Of a stretch of 32,000 nucleotides of DNA, positions 145-32,000 are shown in pieces; positions within the stretch are counted from its first letter, which is position 1; each line of letters opens with the position of its first letter. Location of the stretch: positions 42,900 to 74,899 of the forward strand of contig JAITBP010000011.1 in assembly GCA_031283585.1 (NCBI GenBank). Reading direction: 5' to 3'. The notes under the pieces were generated by a model, which was not told where the DNA came from, searched no databases, and saw nothing but the letters and a program-made list of their open reading frames with translations. Made by a program: the position numbers and the translations under genes. The stretch comes from Puniceicoccales bacterium. GTDB taxonomy: Bacteria; Verrucomicrobiota; Verrucomicrobiia; Opitutales; LL51.

Positions 145-927
145 TTAGTATGCAGAGACTTTCTGTCTTGGCAATCTGTTTATTGTGGAGGTAATTTCGA
201 AATAGCGCAAAAAATCGACACCAAATCTATCTATGGAAAGATTCAGTTGCCATACCTCTATTCCTTTTTTCATTGAATCCTTCATGGCCTGGAATATTTC
301 CGTGTTATATTTACTTGGTGGCGGAGGGACAAACTTTGGTGCATCAAACACAAAGCAGGTTAGTAGAATGGCTCGATTATTTTTCTCCAGACTGTTGCCT
401 AGTTCCTGGACATGTTTAATGAATCGATCCAAGGTCATCAGTCCATGGTTCGGTAACTCCTCTCCTGGCTTTATAAATAGATGGATGAGTGGCATTTTGA
501 CTTCGATGTAGGTATTTCCTACGCAAAAATCCAACCTTGAGGAGCCAAGAATTTGTTCCCGAAGGACCGGTTCCCCTGGCGGAGCCAGGTTTTCAAGTCG
601 GCCGGTTTTCAAAAAATATTCCACATATTTGTTTACGGCGGTTTGATTAATCCCGATCCAATTTTTTTTTGGATTATCGATGGTGTCCAGGGAAAATGCT
701 TCCACGGTGTAATTGGTTTTACGGTGGCTATTGTTGGATTTAGAAAGCAGACAGGGCACATTGCTGAAGACGATTTTACCAACTTTTCCGGTGGTGGGAC
801 AATGGCATTTTTCTATTTTTCCTTCGATCTCCACATACATCAGAAAACGACTTGGCCTGGATTTTATGATTCCTTCGGTCAAAGGAGTACTAAATTTAAA
901 TCCAGAAGAATCATACGAAGGCTTCAT
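145..927 (-). CDS. sfsA: Sugar fermentation stimulation protein SfsA family (DNA/nuclease-like fold)
   Basis: The translation contains typical SfsA blocks: IIKSRPSRFLMYVEIEGKIEKCHCPTTGKVG, YTVEAF, IGINQTAVNKYVE and RLDFCV...YIEVK. The track ORF extends to 1062, but residues 1-45 overlap the 3' end of tmRNA. I therefore start at the internal ATG (plus-strand 'cat' at 925-927, MKPSYDSSG...). Confidence 0.8.
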   Translation of the reverse strand: MKPSYDSSGFKFSTPLTEGIIKSRPSRFLMYVEIEGKIEKCHCPTTGKVGKIVFSNVPCLLSKSNNSHRKTNYTVEAFSLDTIDNPKKNWIGINQTAVNKYVEYFLKTGRLENLAPPGEPVLREQILGSSRLDFCVGNTYIEVKMPLIHLFIKPGEELPNHGLMTLDRFIKHVQELGNSLEKNNRAILLTCFVFDAPKFVPPPPSKYNTEIFQAMKDSMKKGIEVWQLNLSIDRFGVDFLRYFEITSTINRLPRQKVSAY

Positions 928-1017
928 AGGACATACAACACCCAATCCGACCGGAAGTAAATTGATAAGTAATGTTTTGTAAATCCTAATTTTGGTGATT
1001 GAGCTACATTTAAGCCC

Positions 1018-1394
1018 TGGTGGAGGTGGCGGGAATTGAACCCGCGTCCTGCAAAATTTCAAATGATGTGTCTACGCATGTAGTCGATAATCTGGTTCAT
1101 TGGTGTGAATCCATCGACAAATTCACACCAACTAGCACACAGTCTAATTACATTATGGTCCTGGGTGCCCGGCCATAATGTTTCTCGCTGTTCACACACC
1201 GAGCCGGCTTTAGCGAGAATCGAACCGGTCGACGTGCCGCAATTAAGCAGCAAGTGCGACAGCTTCGTCACCGAAGTTAGCCGCTATGACATTATCTTTG
1301 CCATTTATATCTTTCGATGGATTTTTACGGAGCCAACCATCATCTCCGATACGCAACATCAATCTACGCTTCACAGTCGAAACCAAACACCCCC
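1018..1394 (-). ncRNA. ssrA: tmRNA (SsrA), 377 nt, CCA encoded
   Basis: The minus-strand 5' end GGGGGTG pairs with the 3' end CACCTCC-A-CCA, giving a G3:U70 Ala-type acceptor. The T-arm is GCGGG-TTCAATT-CCCGC. There is an internal tag ORF GGC AAA GAT AAT GTC ATA GCG GCT AAC TTC GGT GAC GAA GCT GTC GCA CTT GCT GCT TAA, ending in the canonical ...ALAA*. The resume codon is uncertain. Confidence 0.85.
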
Positions 1395-1402
1395 GATCAA
1401 AA

Positions 1403-1476
1403 TGGTGCGGGCAGACGGAATCGAACCGACGACACCAACTTGGAAGGCTGAAGTTTTACCGCTAAACTATGCCCGC
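1403..1476 (-). tRNA. tRNA-Gly (anticodon UCC), CCA encoded
   Basis: The reverse complement GCGGGCATAGTTTAGCGGTAAAACTTCAGCCTTCCAAGTTGGTGTCGTCGGTTCGATTCCGTCTGCCCGCACCA folds as a cloverleaf. Acceptor GCGGGCA/TGCCCGC, anticodon loop CT-TCC-AA, T-loop TTCGATT. Confidence 0.9.
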
Positions 1477-3164: not shown

Positions 3165-3728
3165 TCAAACTCTCCCGAGGTATTTACATTCATTGGTGCT
3201 GATTCGGATGATGTCACCATCTTTCACAAACAAAGGTACCTGTACCACCAACCCACTTTCCATCGTGGCAGGTTTTTGGGCACTGGAGACCGAATCGCCG
3301 CGTAGGCCTTCGGGGGAGCTGACAACCTTCATCTCCACCGAGGCGGGCAATTGTATTTGAACTGCTTTGTCATCAACAAATAATATATCGTATTCCTGGC
3401 CTTCGATCAGGAATTTTTTCTGCTCTTCAACTGTGGCTTTGGCAAGAACCGTGTATTCGTAGGTTTCAGTATTTAGGAAGTGAAATCCTTCCTGATCTAC
3501 GTAGGAAAATTCTAGGGTTTTGGTGGAAACGTGGCAAAACTCAATGTTGTCCGTGGACCGAAATTTTGTGGTTGTTGAGGCGCCTGTGTGAAGATTTCTC
3601 ATGGTTACCTGAACAAAACCAGCCTGACGGCCCTGGGTTCGGTGTAACATCTCCAGAATGAGATGCGGAGCCTCCTGGTATAATAATACACGCCCTTTCC
3701 TTATATCTGTTGGCGAAGCCATGACCAT
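3165..3728 (-). CDS. efp: Translation elongation factor P
   Basis: The 187-aa product aligns residue by residue with E. coli EF-P: IRKG..., TQGRQAGFVQVTMRNLHTG...KFRSTD. The loop residue equivalent to E. coli K34 is Arg (codon at 3627-3629). Confidence 0.9.
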   Translation of the reverse strand: MVMASPTDIRKGRVLLYQEAPHLILEMLHRTQGRQAGFVQVTMRNLHTGASTTTKFRSTDNIEFCHVSTKTLEFSYVDQEGFHFLNTETYEYTVLAKATVEEQKKFLIEGQEYDILFVDDKAVQIQLPASVEMKVVSSPEGLRGDSVSSAQKPATMESGLVVQVPLFVKDGDIIRISTNECKYLGRV

Positions 3729-5628: not shown

Positions 5629-6234
5629 ATGTTCGGAACCATACATGTGTTGGATTTTGAGGGTAATCAGGAATTCGGTGTTGTTGAATTTGGCATCGTT
5701 ACCCTGGTTAACCTGGAGATATCTGGTTGTGTAGGAGTCGGATGTAGATCAAAATCCGGGACTTTTATCTCCAGAGATTTCCGAGAGCATTCCAGGATAA
5801 ACAACGAGGCCGACGATGAGGTTGAGTTCAGTGACCATGTTTCGAAGTTCGTTTTGCTGCGTCGGTCAGGTATTTTTTGCGCCCACTCGTCGCAGACCGA
5901 AAAGTCCTTGCTTCGGAGTTACATGCCGACGCCTGGCCTGGTCTTAAGATTTTATGCCAGCGGATTGACCAGTTCCTGGGATCCCTGGATTGATACAAAG
6001 TTGCTGTACCGGAGGTGCTTCCCGAATATCAGGAATTATTCGTTGATGGCATTGATAACCAGGTGTAATTTGCGTTCGGCCTTGGATGAGGTTTCTGGTA
6101 AATATTGTCCGGTGTATAAATGTAAGCCGCATAACGCTCTATACGATGCTTTGGCTTCGGCGTTACTGTTGATGAACTTCATAAAAATTTCCAAAATTAC
6201 TTCGTTGGTTGACTTGGTCGAGATTTGTCTGTGA
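5629..6234 (+). CDS. DEDDh-type 3'-5' exonuclease (DnaQ/epsilon-like) with a variant Exo II motif
   Basis: Exo I is HVLDFEG and Exo III is HNALYDA. Exo II reads AHSSQTEKSLL rather than the canonical HNAxFD. The ATG directly abuts the lepA stop (TAGATG). Confidence 0.65.
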   Translation: MFGTIHVLDFEGNQEFGVVEFGIVTLVNLEISGCVGVGCRSKSGTFISRDFREHSRINNEADDEVEFSDHVSKFVLLRRSGIFCAHSSQTEKSLLRSYMPTPGLVLRFYASGLTSSWDPWIDTKLLYRRCFPNIRNYSLMALITRCNLRSALDEVSGKYCPVYKCKPHNALYDALASALLLMNFIKISKITSLVDLVEICL

Positions 6235-20041: not shown

Positions 20042-20144
20042 AGGCAGGCTGGGAGCTATGCAACTTTAGAGCCGACTAACTCCGCCAGGACTGGAAGGTA
20101 GCAACGGTTGTCAGGTTTGTTGTGTGCTGTAGACTTCCTGGCCT
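20042..20144 (+). ncRNA. ffs: Signal recognition particle RNA (small 4.5S-type)
   Basis: The conserved domain IV core CCAGGACTGGAAGGTAGCAACGG (20086-20108) matches the E. coli 4.5S core CCAGGUCCGGAAGGAAGCAGCC. It has a GGAA tetraloop and AGG/AGCA symmetric-loop residues. Flanking sequences (AGGCAGG... / ...CCTGGCCT) can pair. The ends are approximate. Confidence 0.75.
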
Positions 20145-20281
20145 CTTATGCTTTAGATTGCAAAATAAAAAATTGGTGAAAAATTTTTTATACAGATAAT
20201 GCATGATTAATCTTCTTGACTCTTTATTCGTGTTCGGATTATTTTCAGTTCGTAAACATAATGGAGTGTATATTATAGGTT

Positions 20282-21131: not shown

Positions 21132-22655
21132 TTAAGCTTGCTGTGTGGTTATAGCTTCTATCCTTTTGCTCAACAGTTTAACTACCACGAACCAGACAAT
21201 GCATATGACCACAAATATAGAAAACGTATAGGGGATTATGGTAAAGAAGCTCGCCTGGGGTATTATCGATAGTAGCGCGGAATTGATCCAGGCGCCACCG
21301 CCTTTACCCATTCTGCCACCGACCACTTCCACCACAGCTTTACCTTTGACCTTCATTTCTTCGTCCAACGGTATGTAGGACATTTCCTTCGTCGGGTCGA
21401 ACAGCGCATATTTGGTAGATTTGGCTATCAAAACAACTGCGGCTCCTAGAAAAACCGATGCCGATAAAGGTGTTAATCCAATGGAACTAAGAACAGTTCC
21501 AAGGCTTGCCACATCTTTGAACAGCACGAAAGTGAAAAACAATGAGCCTATCATCACAAACAACAGCGGAGTTATTATGGCTGCGGTAAACCATTTACAA
21601 ACTCTCAATATGTTGCCCGCAAAGACTATAATAATCATTGATGCGATTCCAGTCCAGAATACGTACTTGCTCATGAAGGAATTAAAAGCGTTGGGATCCT
21701 TATATTGCATACCAACCTGTTTTTTCCATAGGGCCTCCACGAGATTTATGCTGATGCCATAGCACACAACCAAAGCGGCAATCAATCCGATATAAGGAGA
21801 TGTGAATATTATCTTAAAACTCTGAGACAGAGGTATGCTTTTCTTTTTCTTTCCACCGGAGTTACCAGGTAATTCTGGTTTATCGTAGAACCGCTTGTCG
21901 GTCAAGACATTGGTATATATCCAGCGGAAAGTTATCATGGCCAGTATACCGAGCACAACGACTATCCCCATTAGCCAATTCAATGAAATTTGCCAAGGAT
22001 CTACGCCAGGTTTTACCTTATCCTTTATGTTGGAAAAATGCTCACCGACGATGCCTGAAGCCAACACGGCCATCTGGGCCATCAATCCGAAGAACGAATA
22101 CATTCTTTTGGCTTCGGATGTCTTGGTTATTTGGTTCGCAAACTGCCAAAATGAAAGAGATAAAAGCACTCCACCCCACAATTCTGCCAGTATAAAAAAC
22201 AGCACATAGGACCAGTTACCAACTATGGCGATGGGCCAATGAAGGCATTTCGGAGCTGCTTTACGCCAAGCAGTTACAGTTTCCATAGATGGATGAAGTA
22301 TGTCCAAATTTGGATATATCAGATAGGCAAATGCACCAAAAAAAACTATAAAGGGTGTTAGTGAAAAATAAAACAATTTTTCATTGCTCAGAATATTACT
22401 GGCTTTCGCATACAATAGCATGAATATTATGGCCGATGGCACCACACAGAATCCTTTTATAAATGGAATAACCTCGGCATCGGATCCGGGCCCTGTTACT
22501 ATCAAACTATCTTTGATGTTCCGTAGGCAGGTATAGTTGAAGAGGATACAGAAAAAGATCAAGCTCATCGGTAGAGCCTTCTTCAATTCATAGGTATGTA
22601 ATGGAAAAAATATACGTCTTAATTTACTAAACTCTTGTGTTGGTTCTTCTGCCAT
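21132..22655 (-). CDS. Nucleotide transporter NTT / ATP:ADP antiporter (Tlc/Npt family)
   Basis: A 507-aa polytopic membrane protein. Its N-terminus ...FSKLRRIFFPLHTYELKKALPMSLIFFCILFNYTCLRNIKDSLIV is highly characteristic of the chlamydial/rickettsial/plastid ATP/ADP translocase family. Confidence 0.9.
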   Translation of the reverse strand: MAEEPTQEFSKLRRIFFPLHTYELKKALPMSLIFFCILFNYTCLRNIKDSLIVTGPGSDAEVIPFIKGFCVVPSAIIFMLLYAKASNILSNEKLFYFSLTPFIVFFGAFAYLIYPNLDILHPSMETVTAWRKAAPKCLHWPIAIVGNWSYVLFFILAELWGGVLLSLSFWQFANQITKTSEAKRMYSFFGLMAQMAVLASGIVGEHFSNIKDKVKPGVDPWQISLNWLMGIVVVLGILAMITFRWIYTNVLTDKRFYDKPELPGNSGGKKKKSIPLSQSFKIIFTSPYIGLIAALVVCYGISINLVEALWKKQVGMQYKDPNAFNSFMSKYVFWTGIASMIIIVFAGNILRVCKWFTAAIITPLLFVMIGSLFFTFVLFKDVASLGTVLSSIGLTPLSASVFLGAAVVLIAKSTKYALFDPTKEMSYIPLDEEMKVKGKAVVEVVGGRMGKGGGAWINSALLSIIPQASFFTIIPYTFSIFVVICIVWFVVVKLLSKRIEAITTQQA

Positions 22656-28006: not shown

Positions 28007-29896
28007 ATGAGTTTGGGAAGATTTTTTACTGAAATCAGTTATGCGTTCACATTAGGTATGTTTTTAGGTGATTGCCATGGAATTAATCCGGCCATGGTCA
28101 GAGTATCACGAGTTAACATGCGTAAATTATCAAGGTTTCCGAAAAAAAAGTCAAGATTGAGAGGAAAAATAAATCCAACCAGATCGGTTAAAACCTATAG
28201 AACTTCTTCCTATCCATTGCTACCCATAGCATCGCTGCTAGAGAAGCCGTCGGAAGATAGCCCACAGAGCTACTCAGCTTCGAATGGCAATAACAGTGTC
28301 GATGGCAATATATCCGGTGAAAAAACCATCGACCAAAAAGCAAAAAATATTAACCAGACTGCTTCTTTAGGTAGTGGCAAAGGCAATCCATCTGGTAACC
28401 TTACCAATTCGGCGCCCAATAGGCAGGCTGTGCCTCCTCAGTTGCCGCCACCGCCGGTTCCTCCGGTACCTACAACGGCTTCAGATAAAATTACAGGACA
28501 TAATGATTCTAAAATGGCAACCCTGCTGGAAATTTTGAGTGCCATGAAGTATCAGGTTGTGGGATTGAAGGATAGCGATCCGGTGGTCAGCGAATTTAAT
28601 TTTTTCAGGTTTGATTGTGAAAAAAATTTTATAGCTAAGACATCGGAGTCTGATGCGGTCTGGGACGAATTGGTGGCTAGAGCAGAGTTATTGAATCAAA
28701 AAATCAGTGATAAGAATCCAAAAAAATCTGAAATGCTTCCGGCTGTAAGAGATGCCATGATAGTACAGGATGCCTACGATCGACTGGCCATGAAAGGCCT
28801 ATTGAAATCAACAGATAAAGCCAAGGGTCCTGAACTTGAAATACTAAAAAAAATGATCAAACCCATAACGCAGGAATTTGCAGACCGGGTGGTTGGAAGT
28901 ATAATAGCATTTGGCACCGGTGTCAGTCCCAGAGGAGATGGATATTCCGAAGAAAGGGTTAAATCTTTACCCGAATTGGGTGAATTGCTCGCAGCCGGAC
29001 CGAACAAATGGAATTACTATGTGTTTAAGACCTTTCCAGTTATCAACAAAAATGTTTTTCGTAAATTTAGGGAACTAGAAAAATCCTTGCCAAAAGCTGA
29101 CGATGAGAAAAAAGAAGCCTATTTGTCATTTTTTTCCAAAGTTGGTGAATTTTGGCATGAGTTATATGATTTTGAACCCACTGGATTGAAGTCCACGGAT
29201 CCATTGGGCTCGAAGAAAAGGATTATGAATATCATTGCTGGTAATGAAATTGATATTGATACCATGTGGAAGATGAAGGATATTTGTGGTGGTTTGTTTT
29301 GGAGCGATTTTGTCGGATTAATTTTGATGGCGGAGAGATACAAGGTATTTCTTTCAGTGATAGACAGGGAATCGGACAGATCCCACGCCTACAAGGAGGT
29401 TTGTAACATGCTGGATATCTTGACGAAGATGAACAAAGGGACCGATGATGCCGCGATGTTGGCTCGGTATATTTTTGATAAATTTTATGATGAAATTACC
29501 AGTTTTGATGCCGCTAAAAACATAATAATTACCACAGGTGTAATGTTTAAATTCACTGACGTGGAGTTATTTCAGGTCAATATATTTGATGACCAGGCCA
29601 GACTTTTTTTAAAGTTCATCAAAAAATTAGTAGAATTGAGTGATGATGATCCGGAAAAATTTGGCAGCTTCATCGACGAATGCAAAGGATTATTTGGCGA
29701 GGTGGCCCAAAGGGTTATAGTTGAAGTGTTTGTCAAAAATTTTTGCAACTTGGATCACAAAGCTGCCAATAAGGAAATAGTTAATAGTTTTATGGTAAAA
29801 ATTTTGATCAGTGGATTTGGGAAAAAATCCCGTGAGTTGCTAAAAAATTTAGCACTACCATCAGCAAAGAAGAAGAAAAAACCAGAGGCCCAGTGA
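28007..29896 (+). CDS. Hypothetical protein, polyproline/basic-cluster family paralogue A
   Basis: A 629-aa ORF with an ATG start. It has a hydrophobic N-terminus ending FLGDC and a K/R-rich stretch (RKLSRFPKKKSRLRGK...). An S/N/G-rich linker and PPQLPPPPVPPVP (28433-28471) follow. The conserved C-terminal domain is shared with 29964->32000, and the tail is KKKKKPEAQ. Confidence 0.85.
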   Translation: MSLGRFFTEISYAFTLGMFLGDCHGINPAMVRVSRVNMRKLSRFPKKKSRLRGKINPTRSVKTYRTSSYPLLPIASLLEKPSEDSPQSYSASNGNNSVDGNISGEKTIDQKAKNINQTASLGSGKGNPSGNLTNSAPNRQAVPPQLPPPPVPPVPTTASDKITGHNDSKMATLLEILSAMKYQVVGLKDSDPVVSEFNFFRFDCEKNFIAKTSESDAVWDELVARAELLNQKISDKNPKKSEMLPAVRDAMIVQDAYDRLAMKGLLKSTDKAKGPELEILKKMIKPITQEFADRVVGSIIAFGTGVSPRGDGYSEERVKSLPELGELLAAGPNKWNYYVFKTFPVINKNVFRKFRELEKSLPKADDEKKEAYLSFFSKVGEFWHELYDFEPTGLKSTDPLGSKKRIMNIIAGNEIDIDTMWKMKDICGGLFWSDFVGLILMAERYKVFLSVIDRESDRSHAYKEVCNMLDILTKMNKGTDDAAMLARYIFDKFYDEITSFDAAKNIIITTGVMFKFTDVELFQVNIFDDQARLFLKFIKKLVELSDDDPEKFGSFIDECKGLFGEVAQRVIVEVFVKNFCNLDHKAANKEIVNSFMVKILISGFGKKSRELLKNLALPSAKKKKKPEAQ

Positions 29897-29916
29897 TAGG
29901 GAAAATAATAAAATAA

Positions 29917-29944
29917 TTGGCTTTTGTAAATTTTTTAGTTTAAT
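29917..29944 (+). promoter_or_regulatory. Putative sigma70-type promoter of paralogue B
   Basis: TTGGCT (29917-29922), a 16-nt spacer, then TTTAAT (29939-29944). An AAGGA Shine-Dalgarno at 29951-29955 lies 8 nt before the ATG at 29964. Pattern match only. Confidence 0.4.
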
Positions 29945-29963
29945 AAAGAAAAGGATTGGCGTT

Positions 29964-32000
29964 ATGAAAAAGGGAAAAATTGCATGGATTATTTGTGTAT
30001 TTATTGCATTCAGTATGCTGGCTGACTGTCCAGAAGCTGAAGCTATGGCAAAAAATCAAAAAAATAAAACAAAGAATAGAAGCAAAACAAAGAGTAAGCC
30101 AAAAAATAGAAGCAAAACTAAGAGAGTATATTCAAAAAATAAAAAATCGTCCACACCGGAGAATAAGACCAGTAGTCCAGAGGCACCAAATGTAAATGCT
30201 AGTACTGTGTCTAATCAAGACAATAGTTCTGATGATGTGTATAAGCTTCAGTCAGAAATTAATCGGCTTAGAGAAGAAAATACCAAACTGTCGACCATGG
30301 TTAATGATGCCGGTGATAGCACGGTTAATAGCAGTGATTTATCCAATGGTTCTGCCACTGAACCCTATGACCAAAGTCAGGCTAATTCAGGTAGCTCTAA
30401 TAGTACTGCAGGTAAAGGAAATGAAGCTACACCGCCGCCACCTCCACCACCACCGCCTCCTCCTTCTTCTACTACAAGTAGCCCTGGCGATGATAAGGAT
30501 GCTAGCAGCAAGCGTATTAGTAATATATTGAGTGATTTGAAAAACATGAAAAGTAGTATGAGTAATCTTAAATTTACAGTTGGTGATTCCCTGGTTAATG
30601 AATTTAATTTGCTTGCATTTGATATTGATACAATGGTTATAATGGGATATCAATTGGAAGATTCTAAATTGGAAAAATTGGAAAAAAGAATAAAATCAAT
30701 CAAGGAAAAGATCGAAGAGAAAAAATCCGATGATAGTAATAAGGTAGTTGTTGCAAAGGTTAGTCCGAAGGCGTTGGCCTGTGAGTATATAATTGATAGA
30801 TTACGGGAAGAAAATCTTGTAAGTAGTAATGCGAATGCCGAAACCATGCAGCTCGATAAATTGATTACAACTGAAGTAGATAAAAATAACTCAACATTGG
30901 ATGATGCAAAACAATCAATAGCTAATCGTATATTATTATTTTACAAAGGAGATGCAAGTAACACAGGAATAAAAAATACCAAAAAGCTAGCGCAAGTTGC
31001 GGAGTTATTTGATCAAAAAAATGAATCTGGTAAATGGAATTATTATATATTTAATTGGTTTCCGGAGATTAAGAAAAATGTCATCAAAAAATTTACTGAT
31101 TTGTGTAAAAAATCTGAAAAAAATGAATATGTAAGTTTTTTTACAAATATCAGTGATTTTTGGGATATCTTGGACCATCAAGAAAAGAGCTTTATTATAA
31201 ATAGAATTGCTGGTAAGACAGAAGAAATTGATATAGATAAAGTATTTGAAATTAAAGAACTATGCAATGGGATGTTTTGGAAGGATTTTGTCATGACCAT
31301 CTTCGCTAAAGAAGAGTGCAAAAATCTGATTTCTTTGCTTAGGATAAGCGGAAGAAGTAGCCCAAGAGAATATGAGATGGTTTGTGACCATGATGTGCTC
31401 AATATTCTAGTTTCAGAAAATATTAAATCAGGAGATCTGACCAAAGGATTTTCTGAACTAGTTTTATATATTTTTGAAAATTATTATGAAGAAGTTAAAA
31501 ACACTAATAATCTTGTGGATATGATAAAATCGACGTGCTTGGTATTTAATTTTAAGGATACAGATTTATTTACTGTAAAAATTTATAACAATTGTGCCAA
31601 GATTTTCAAAATTGTTATCAAGATGCTGTGTGAATTGAGTAATGGTAATCACGAAAAATTTACTGATCTGGTGAGTGCATTGAAAGATAAATTCAGAGAG
31701 GCAGCTCAGATTGCTGTAGTAGAGGTATTCGTTCATAATTTTTGCGATCTGGATAATAAGGAAAACAATAAGGATAAGGTTGGAAATTTTGTGAAAAAAG
31801 TTTCTGCAGCCACGAATAGCAATGTAGGATTTGGGCCAAAAGCCTGTAATTTATTGAAGAATCTAGCCTTGCCTCCGGAGGAGAAAAAGCCAGTTCCGGA
31901 AAAGAAGAAGCCGTCCTCGGGCAAATCATCGACAGATTCAGGTGATTCTTCTGGTGATTCAGTACGCGAAAAGGTTACACTTAAGAGCGTAAATGAAAGT
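29964..32000 (+). CDS. Hypothetical protein, polyproline/basic-cluster family paralogue B (3' end beyond window)
   Basis: It is not in the supplied ORF track. I read the frame codon by codon from ATG 29964 to 32000 and found 679 sense codons with no stop. The product starts MKKGKIAWIICVFIAFSMLADC and continues with KNQKNKTKNRSKTKSKPKNRSKTKR. It has 11 consecutive Pro codons (30432-30464) and then blocks shared with paralogue A. Confidence 0.85.
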   Translation, partial: MKKGKIAWIICVFIAFSMLADCPEAEAMAKNQKNKTKNRSKTKSKPKNRSKTKRVYSKNKKSSTPENKTSSPEAPNVNASTVSNQDNSSDDVYKLQSEINRLREENTKLSTMVNDAGDSTVNSSDLSNGSATEPYDQSQANSGSSNSTAGKGNEATPPPPPPPPPPPSSTTSSPGDDKDASSKRISNILSDLKNMKSSMSNLKFTVGDSLVNEFNLLAFDIDTMVIMGYQLEDSKLEKLEKRIKSIKEKIEEKKSDDSNKVVVAKVSPKALACEYIIDRLREENLVSSNANAETMQLDKLITTEVDKNNSTLDDAKQSIANRILLFYKGDASNTGIKNTKKLAQVAELFDQKNESGKWNYYIFNWFPEIKKNVIKKFTDLCKKSEKNEYVSFFTNISDFWDILDHQEKSFIINRIAGKTEEIDIDKVFEIKELCNGMFWKDFVMTIFAKEECKNLISLLRISGRSSPREYEMVCDHDVLNILVSENIKSGDLTKGFSELVLYIFENYYEEVKNTNNLVDMIKSTCLVFNFKDTDLFTVKIYNNCAKIFKIVIKMLCELSNGNHEKFTDLVSALKDKFREAAQIAVVEVFVHNFCDLDNKENNKDKVGNFVKKVSAATNSNVGFGPKACNLLKNLALPPEEKKPVPEKKKPSSGKSSTDSGDSSGDSVREKVTLKSVNES
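30075..30134 (+). repeat. Tandem 30-nt duplication inside paralogue B (NRSKTK... decapeptide repeat)
   Basis: AATAGAAGCAAAACAAAGAG at 30075 and AATAGAAGCAAAACTAAGAG at 30105 match at 19 of 20 positions with a 30-nt period. They encode NRSKTKSKPK / NRSKTKRVYS. Confidence 0.6.

Follow-up and report, generated by a model that had tools for sequence, protein, structure and literature searches.

An essentially orphan pair of paralogous genes with a predicted helical head domain in a probable protist endosymbiont of the Puniceicoccales

The locus and its two genes

The window analysed here is a stretch of 32,000 nucleotides of contig JAITBP010000011.1, which belongs to a metagenome-assembled genome (MAG) named 'Puniceicoccales bacterium' at NCBI (locus tags LBB20_). 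Two adjacent genes on the same strand at the end of the window, gene 1 and gene 2, are the subject of this study. The window also encodes a TLC-family nucleotide (ATP/ADP) transporter, a pyruvate:ferredoxin oxidoreductase, ordinary housekeeping genes, a tmRNA, a signal recognition particle (SRP) RNA and four tRNAs (Table 1). A preliminary description made from the sequence had presented the two genes as a tandem pair of large, lineage-specific paralogues, and both open reading frames were confirmed at the positions listed in Table 1.

A Shine-Dalgarno-like AAGGA is located 9-13 nt upstream of the ATG of gene 2. The NCBI entry for this gene is a 679-aa 'partial' protein, and the end of the window is therefore the end of the contig. 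Gene 1 was recovered independently in a Logan contig of SRR14710909, with 6 single-nucleotide polymorphisms in 12 kb. This second assembly spans the adjoining beta-CASP gene, gene 1 and the first 27 codons of gene 2; the junctions are thus reproduced, and a chimeric assembly was ruled out. The GC content at third codon positions (GC3) was 0.40 in gene 1 and 0.29 in gene 2, compared with 0.45-0.50 in the housekeeping genes. The low GC3 and the tandem duplication together suggest an accessory status for the pair.

Gene 2 contains two in-frame tandem repeats, one of 30 nt (2.3 copies) in the basic cluster and one of 12 nt (2 copies) in the S/G/D tail. The Logan assembly breaks at the 30-nt repeat and the MAG contig ends just past the 12-nt repeat. 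The repeats are probably the cause of both breaks and may differ in length between strains.

Table 1. Features of the 32,000-nucleotide window; positions are counted from its first nucleotide
Feature	Position	Strand	Details and basis
Gene 1, complete, 629 aa	28007-29896	+	MDR2735849.1, LBB20_03405, 'hypothetical protein'; identical protein in NCBI/JGI
Gene 1, hydrophobic segment ending G-D-C, residues 1-23	28007-28075	+	Translation, alignment, hydropathy
Gene 1, basic cluster, residues 26-70, net +14	28082-28216	+	Charge count
Gene 1, S/N/G/P-rich low-complexity linker, including polyproline PPQLPPPPVPPVP at 28433-28471	28217-28510	+	Composition; pN 0.58
Gene 1, orphan domain, predicted all-alpha, residues 169-620	28511-29866	+	BLASTP, AlphaFold2
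Gene 1, Lys-rich C-terminal tail AKKKKKPEAQ	29867-29893	+	Residues 599-629 net charge +7
Gene 2, 679 codons, 3' end missing	29964-32000	+	MDR2735850.1, LBB20_03410, 'partial'
Gene 2, putative signal/anchor: MKKGK, 14-residue hydrophobic core, A-D-C; residues 1-22	29964-30029	+	Translation, hydropathy
Gene 2, basic cluster, 31% Lys, net +15 over residues 26-70	30045-30173	+	Charge and composition
Gene 2, 30-nt tandem repeat	30070-30141	+	
Gene 2, S/N/T-rich linker, including eleven consecutive Pro at 30432-30464	30174-30512	+	Translation, alignment
Gene 2, orphan domain, predicted all-alpha, residues 184-640	30513-31883	+	BLASTP, AlphaFold2; GC3 0.28
Gene 2, K/P-rich then S/G/D-rich C-terminal extension, cut by contig end	31884-32000	+	Translation; 12-nt repeat at 31937-31960
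TLC nucleotide (ATP/ADP) transporter	21132-22655	-	Pfam PF03219, E 8.7e-175
Pyruvate:ferredoxin oxidoreductase, 1181 aa	22868-26413	+	
Second orphan pair, first gene, 541 aa	10251-11876	+	No Pfam family
Second orphan pair, second gene, 578 aa	12052-13788	+	No Pfam family
tRNA-Lys(ttt), tRNA-Thr(tgt), tRNA-Thr(cgt)	9414-9666	+	
SfsA open reading frame, TTG start at 1062	145-1062	-	Pfam match begins at residue 69
tmRNA, tag peptide GKDNVIAANFGDEAVALAA	1018-1394	-	
tRNA-Gly(tcc)	1403-1476	-	
Elongation factor P	3165-3728	-	
201-aa open reading frame	5629-6234	+	Best Pfam match a weak RNase_T, E 0.02
Bacterial small SRP RNA	20047-20146	+	Rfam RF00169, 55 bits

Paralogy and selection

Protein 1 and protein 2 are 32% identical, with 52% positives, over 481 aa (BLASTP, E 4e-63). 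Every conserved block that had been quoted in support of their paralogy was found again in the global alignment: KWNYY.F..FP.I.KNV..KF, Y.SFF....FW and IAG..EIDID....K..C.G.FW.DFV, and further VEVFV.NFC.LD.K and LLKNLALP. In total, 158 positions are invariant between the two proteins.

The proportions of synonymous (pS) and nonsynonymous (pN) differences were obtained by Nei-Gojobori count on the codon alignment of the two paralogues. The helical domain displayed a saturated pS of 0.74-0.77 and a pN of 0.36-0.41, which shows that the duplication is old and that this domain, the head of the protein, has been under purifying selection. In the linker, where pS was about 0.71, the pN of 0.58 indicates that composition has been kept with hardly any constraint on the sequence itself, the pattern of functional disordered spacers. 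The best blocks are only 72-86% identical at the DNA level, and recent gene conversion was therefore ruled out. Judged by the saturation of synonymous sites and the conservation of the helical domain, both genes are functional.

Modules of the two proteins

The same order of modules was found in both proteins by translation, charge, composition, alignment and structural models, as had been proposed: a hydrophobic N-terminus ending in (G/A)-D-C, a dense Lys/Arg cluster, an S/N/G-rich low-complexity linker, a polyproline tract and a domain of about 450 aa. The Lys-rich tail that should complete the series is present in protein 1; protein 2 has EEKKPVPEKKKP and thereafter an S/G/D-rich tract that is cut by the contig end.

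The N-terminal segments end in ...AFTLGMFLGDC in protein 1 and ...VFIAFSMLADC in protein 2, and M1, G4, D22 and C23 are invariant in the alignment. The segment is weak in protein 1. Protein 2 has a textbook n-region (+3, MKKGK) and h-region, with a best 19-residue Kyte-Doolittle mean of 1.81, and an acidic flank, DCPEAEA, directly after the hydrophobic core. These flanking charges would be expected to point the C-terminus outward, as for an export signal. Outside the N-terminus, no 19-residue window above a mean of 1.3 was found among the top windows listed. The best reading of this conserved hydrophobic segment and its invariant Cys is a putative Sec-type signal or anchor; to our knowledge, the signals of type III secretion system (T3SS) substrates do not look like this. 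A prepilin-type signal was rejected, as only protein 1 has a Glu at +5 after Gly4, the residue at +1 is Arg, and the arrangement is not conserved in protein 2. Each protein has a single short N-terminal hydrophobic segment and no bilobed hydrophobic domain of about 40-60 residues of the chlamydial Inc type.

The basic cluster of protein 1 holds PKKKSRLR, which fits the pattern K-K/R-x-K/R, and in gene 2 the 30-nt repeat encodes KNRSKTKSKP-like units within the cluster. The linker of protein 2 carries a short heptad-like insert, QSEINRLREENTKL. LPPPP is present in protein 1, and the polyproline tract of protein 2 is an uninterrupted run of 11 prolines. Elongation factor P is needed to translate consecutive prolines such as an 11-Pro run; the presence of its gene in the window is a coincidence only.

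The helical head and the search for known domains

AlphaFold2 was run once with each paralogue as target, at a multiple sequence alignment depth of 2. Both heads were predicted as all-alpha, with 22-25 helices and no sheet, in agreement with the helical-looking domain described from the sequence, although both models are of low confidence. In the model of protein 1, which has 22 helices, the predicted local distance difference test (pLDDT) score was 70-86 in most of the last ~170 residues.

No known domain had been recognised in the preliminary description, and none emerged from the database searches. Pfam and NCBIfam at E <=1 gave sub-threshold noise only for both proteins, and a profile search of all PDB sequences gave no match at E <=10. 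The best matches in PADLOC and PHROGs (E 0.0015-0.04, 14-17 bits) differed between the paralogues and none was credible, and a tblastn search of plasmids with the helical domain of protein 1 was empty; an anti-phage defence or phage protein was thereby rejected. A profile match of the C-terminal domain to a housekeeping family was likewise looked for in these searches and not found.

Foldseek comparison of both models with the PDB returned generic TPR, PPR or designed-repeat matches at E >0.01 and template modelling (TM) scores <=0.25. TPR and other alpha-solenoid scaffolds thus share with the heads the predicted all-alpha structure and the best, non-significant fold matches. However, comparison of the domain quarters revealed no internal repeats (hhalign, probabilities <=1.9%) and there was no Pfam match of the TPR class, and a helical-repeat protein was ruled out. 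A formin or WH2 protein was also rejected, as neither FH2 nor WH2 (PF02205) was matched in Pfam at E <=1. LLKNLALP was not reported as a WH2 motif at that threshold, and no formin was among the 50 PDB matches listed by Foldseek for either low-confidence model. A P-loop was dismissed as well, since AGKT is confined to protein 2, where its context is wrong.

There is no histidine among the 158 invariant positions, which makes the common His-dependent chemistries (hydrolase, metalloprotease, Fic) less likely. Together with the lack of any match to a catalytic family, this favours a binding scaffold, and suggests that the head may be a binding domain and not a His-dependent enzyme.

Distribution of the family

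A word-indexed search of 5.8 billion protein clusters, run twice, returned the two proteins only. When 1.84 billion representatives were searched exhaustively with a HMMER profile, the same two and one fragment of 65 aa (E 5e-4) were returned, and degenerate-pattern scans of 185,579 species genomes (GTDB) and of JGI metagenome contigs revealed no further locus. The family counts two intact members among approximately 15 billion proteins, plus one decayed copy. The claim of lineage restriction is borne out, in that the near-orphan status was the same in all searches and no wide spread in free-living bacteria was detected.

The fragment is located on a contig of 1,035 bp with 23% GC (JGI 3300042620, Ga0466728_063796). 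In a six-frame reading, positions 389-1033 of this contig are homologous to residues ~262-469 of protein 2 with 43-51% identity. The copy is spread over two frames, with two frameshifts, TAA and TAG stops, and TGA at sites of Trp or Cys in the paralogues; in the JGI gene calling, TGA had been translated as Trp. In the 'FW' block, the loss of one base has destroyed the conserved Trp codon, and this looks like decay and not like recoding. The copy therefore looks like a pseudogene in a much more AT-rich organism; alternatively, it may stem from an organism in which TGA encodes Trp (code 4). The JGI identifier is close to those of two samples with related Puniceicoccales contigs, 3300042596 and 3300042636, and by the adjacent identifiers only, the fragment probably comes from the same series of metagenomes.

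For a comparison of gene order, 45 genome loci and 34 metagenome loci around the beta-CASP gene were fetched. The nearest relatives of this gene, with 57-60% identity, are found in Puniceicoccales MAGs with JAIR, JAIS and JAIT accessions; in these genome loci there was neither shared gene order nor a homologue of the pair. Among the metagenome loci, the best beta-CASP match was only 47% identical (n = 34); gene order was compared for the genome loci. Two genus-level relatives, LBI37 and LBH49, are fully syntenic with the window from 7.5 to 22.6 kb, and their housekeeping proteins are 77-86% identical to those of the window. Their contigs reach no further than the TLC gene, and no family member was found among their deposited proteins, a negative limited by the incompleteness of the MAGs.

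The source organism

The JAIR/JAIS/JAIT accession range is that of a termite-gut MAG set in which the authors described 'putatively endosymbiotic Opitutales' (PMC11257099). Among these is Candidatus Nucleococcus, which is endonuclear; the group carries nucleotide transporters, and transporters of this type are found in free-living bacteria too (PMC11257099); the 'Nucleococcus cluster' is treated in PMC8204192. The ATP/ADP translocase that had been noticed in the window was verified as a member of the TLC family (Table 1). The source bacterium most likely lives inside termite-gut flagellates as a symbiont that imports ATP.

The TLC gene adjoins the gene of the pyruvate:ferredoxin oxidoreductase, a neighbourhood that suggests an anaerobic metabolism combined with import of nucleotides or ATP. 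In the gene calling of the Logan contig, the start of the TLC gene was placed 29 codons later, which gives a protein of 478 aa instead of 507 aa.

Other features of the window

A second tandem pair of paralogues without any Pfam family is present in the window. The two proteins are 37% identical, share N-terminal blocks such as QSMSG.GRTGYKNMTI.GR, and have a long central stretch rich in Gly, Ala, Ser, Val and Ile that resembles 2-3 membrane helices; the pair may encode a membrane-inserting or translocator-like protein. Single-copy orthologues occur in the two syntenic Puniceicoccales MAGs at 35-45% identity, as against 77-86% for the flanking housekeeping proteins, and the second pair is accordingly lineage-restricted and very fast-evolving. 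A cluster of three tRNA genes lies directly upstream of it, which is a classic position for variable or island DNA.

The SfsA open reading frame overlaps the 3' end of the tmRNA and its true start is probably further downstream. The SRP RNA is located between the valyl-tRNA synthetase and response-regulator genes. The open reading frame of 201 aa begins directly after the LepA stop (5628/5629) and has no significant Pfam hit.

Interpretation

The paralogous pair is real, well delimited and essentially orphan, and its helical head is apparently novel. The resemblance of the two proteins to known systems is architectural only: TonB_C, ZipA_C, FH2, WH2, a canonical lipobox, a bilobed Inc domain and helical repeats were all looked for and not found. 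We tentatively favour the reading that they encode Sec-targeted binding proteins, envelope-anchored or released, which face the host from a disordered stalk. This reading is the best supported because of the extreme lineage restriction, the accessory composition, the tandem duplication, the ATP-scavenging and probably intracellular lifestyle, and the run of 11 prolines. It is also favoured by the second orphan pair, the fast evolution of which shows that the genome carries rapidly diversifying lineage-specific proteins. From these properties of the locus we infer that the proteins are exported, exposed at the surface and in contact with the host, and that they bind rather than catalyse.

In such a protein, the conserved hydrophobic segment with its invariant Cys would target the protein to the Sec pathway, whereafter the segment would either keep it anchored in the envelope or be cleaved off. 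The stalk of ~150 residues, composed of the basic cluster, the S/N/G spacer and a polyproline rod, would hold the ~450-aa helical head off the membrane, and the exposed head, the polyproline and the basic patch could then contact host components. Candidate partners would be proline-recognition modules, such as profilin and SH3 domains, or anionic polymers and lipids. A comparable combination of export signal, basic disordered region and folded domain is known from surface proteins that contact host polyanions, such as the neisserial lipoprotein NHBA, with its disordered tether and basic patch, and chlamydial OmcB with its basic N-terminal region. The proteins described here have no sequence or fold relationship to these and differ by the Asp that precedes the Cys.

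Several observations weigh against the reading as stalked, host-facing proteins. The endosymbiotic lifestyle of this particular MAG is deduced from its relatives and from a transporter type that, as said, is not confined to symbionts. The N-terminal segment of protein 1 is weakly hydrophobic, with Glu9 inside it and a nearly uncharged n-region, MSLGR. By the positive-inside rule, the +14 and +15 clusters soon after the hydrophobic segment would oppose translocation. The invariant Cys invites a lipoprotein reading, but both proteins have Asp at -1 (LGD-C and LAD-C), which violates the canonical lipobox, [LVI][ASTVI][GAS]-C, where position -1 is taken by a small residue, and any lipidation is therefore only putative. 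A positively charged n-region and an h-region of 7-15 residues before the Cys are present in protein 2 and marginal in protein 1; the one clear lipoprotein of the window is an M23 peptidase with a canonical LATS-C. The pLDDT of the models is as low as 58.7 and 52.8, and the fold searches were uninformative. LPPPP and the KKSR within PKKKSRLR are each present in one paralogue only, and these motifs were consequently given little weight. Finally, no secretion-system gene was seen within the 32-kb window, and both secretion and a host target are putative.

In the preliminary description, the pair was taken for secreted host-targeting effectors, with an envelope protein on a proline-rich stalk as the competing explanation. 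The former idea is plausible and partly supported by the near-orphan family, the lack of a housekeeping hit, the TLC context, the atypical GC3 and the eukaryote-style polyproline; the Sec-like N-terminus and the absence of secretion genes from the 32 kb speak against it as it was put, and it should be shifted toward Sec-dependent surface display or release. The latter is kept alive by the conserved N-terminal segment, although membership in the TonB family fails. The two ideas partly merge, since in an intracellular bacterium a protein anchored at the surface faces the host.

It is less likely, but deserves consideration, that the proteins are purely bacterial envelope components, lipo- or signal-anchored, whose stalk crosses the periplasm and whose head works on the wall or the outer membrane of the bacterium itself without any host contact. 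TonB, RcsF and LpoB all combine an N-terminal membrane or lipid anchor with a disordered basic or Pro-rich spacer and a distant C-terminal domain, and the hydrophobic N-terminus with the invariant Cys and the linker of both proteins fit this plan. Envelope maintenance factors are, however, normally conserved across an order at least, whereas this family is confined to essentially one genome and is absent from the other Puniceicoccales and Opitutales proteins in the 15-billion collection, the two genus-level relatives included. Neither TonB_C (PF03544) nor any other envelope domain was matched in Pfam at E <=1, the predicted all-alpha head of ~450 aa differs from TonB, and so does the pure 11-Pro run of protein 2, as TonB has Glu-Pro and Lys-Pro repeats. 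The suggested accessory status and the non-canonical lipobox also disagree with this explanation.

A bolder version of the host-facing reading, which we consider unlikely as a whole, would make the pair the first host-manipulating family unique to verrucomicrobial endosymbionts of termite-gut protists of the 'Nucleococcus-cluster' type. The bacterium would display or release a helical head of novel fold, the polyproline would recruit host profilin or SH3-type modules, and the patch resembling a nuclear localisation signal (NLS) would bind nuclear or membrane polyanions of the host. The proteins would thereby tie the bacterium to host cytoskeleton or chromatin or remodel these, and the decayed copy would record an exchange of such factors between symbionts that live side by side. 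Whichever reading is preferred, the proline-rich proteins ActA, Sca2, BimA and TARP, with which bacteria modulate host actin, and superficially the FH1-FH2 arrangement of formins are a parallel in layout: a polyproline directly precedes a large helical domain, and the organism is probably intracellular. The parallel ends there, as no FH2, WH2 or other actin-related Pfam family was matched at E <=1, formins were lacking among the listed fold matches, and LPPPP is not shared by the paralogues.

There is a rather small chance that the proteins are tethered to the inner membrane by a reverse signal-anchor (N-out, C-in), with a cytoplasmic head and a basic cluster that is cytoplasmic or binds nucleic acid or anionic lipid. 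ZipA has the same module order of transmembrane helix, charged region, P-rich flexible tether and globular C-terminal domain. The large basic cluster after the anchor favours a cytoplasmic downstream side and keeps such a topology alive, especially for protein 1, which has no positively charged n-region. In protein 2, the +3 n-region and the acidic stretch after the core signal the opposite orientation. Neither ZipA_C nor another cytoplasmic domain was matched in Pfam or NCBIfam, the head is three times larger than that of ZipA, and the extreme lineage restriction would be odd for a cell-biological tether.

Soluble effectors, moved into the host by a T3SS or a type IV secretion system (T4SS) and acting through polyproline and NLS-like cluster in the host cytoplasm or nucleus, are also improbable. 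The modular, orphan and fast-evolving architecture with eukaryote-like linear motifs would suit them, as would the TLC context and the nearby second orphan pair with its central hydrophobic region, and the +7 tail of protein 1 recalls signals of the VirB/D4 type. On the other side, a hydrophobic N-terminus that is conserved is atypical for T3SS substrates, no gene for such a system was seen in the window, the Pfam, PDB and Foldseek searches gave no link to a known effector fold, and KKSR and LPPPP are not common to both proteins.

It is very unlikely that the pair is functionless or decaying accessory DNA from an AT-rich neighbour that has not yet been disrupted: the family has no further member except a pseudogene-like fragment on a 23%-GC contig, the GC3 of gene 2 is low and the genes lie at a contig edge, yet both open reading frames (629 and at least 679 codons) have stayed intact in AT-rich sequence, and the saturated pS, the low pN of the head and the retained N-terminal motif and module order point to long-term purifying selection after the duplication.

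Significance

In the literature looked at, no characterised host-interaction proteins of verrucomicrobial endosymbionts of protists, whether of termite-gut flagellates or of ciliates, were found. Modular proteins without relatives are frequent in symbiont MAGs, and so far no new mechanism is needed to account for the findings. As it stands, the pair consists of well-documented orphan genes and is an entry on a shortlist for localisation and interaction work, not a demonstrated mechanism. If the proteins are surface-exposed or secreted, they would be concrete candidates for the means by which such a bacterium makes contact with its host, and they would define a new helical domain. The pair may reasonably be put forward as a candidate for a first host-contact factor in this lineage of symbionts.

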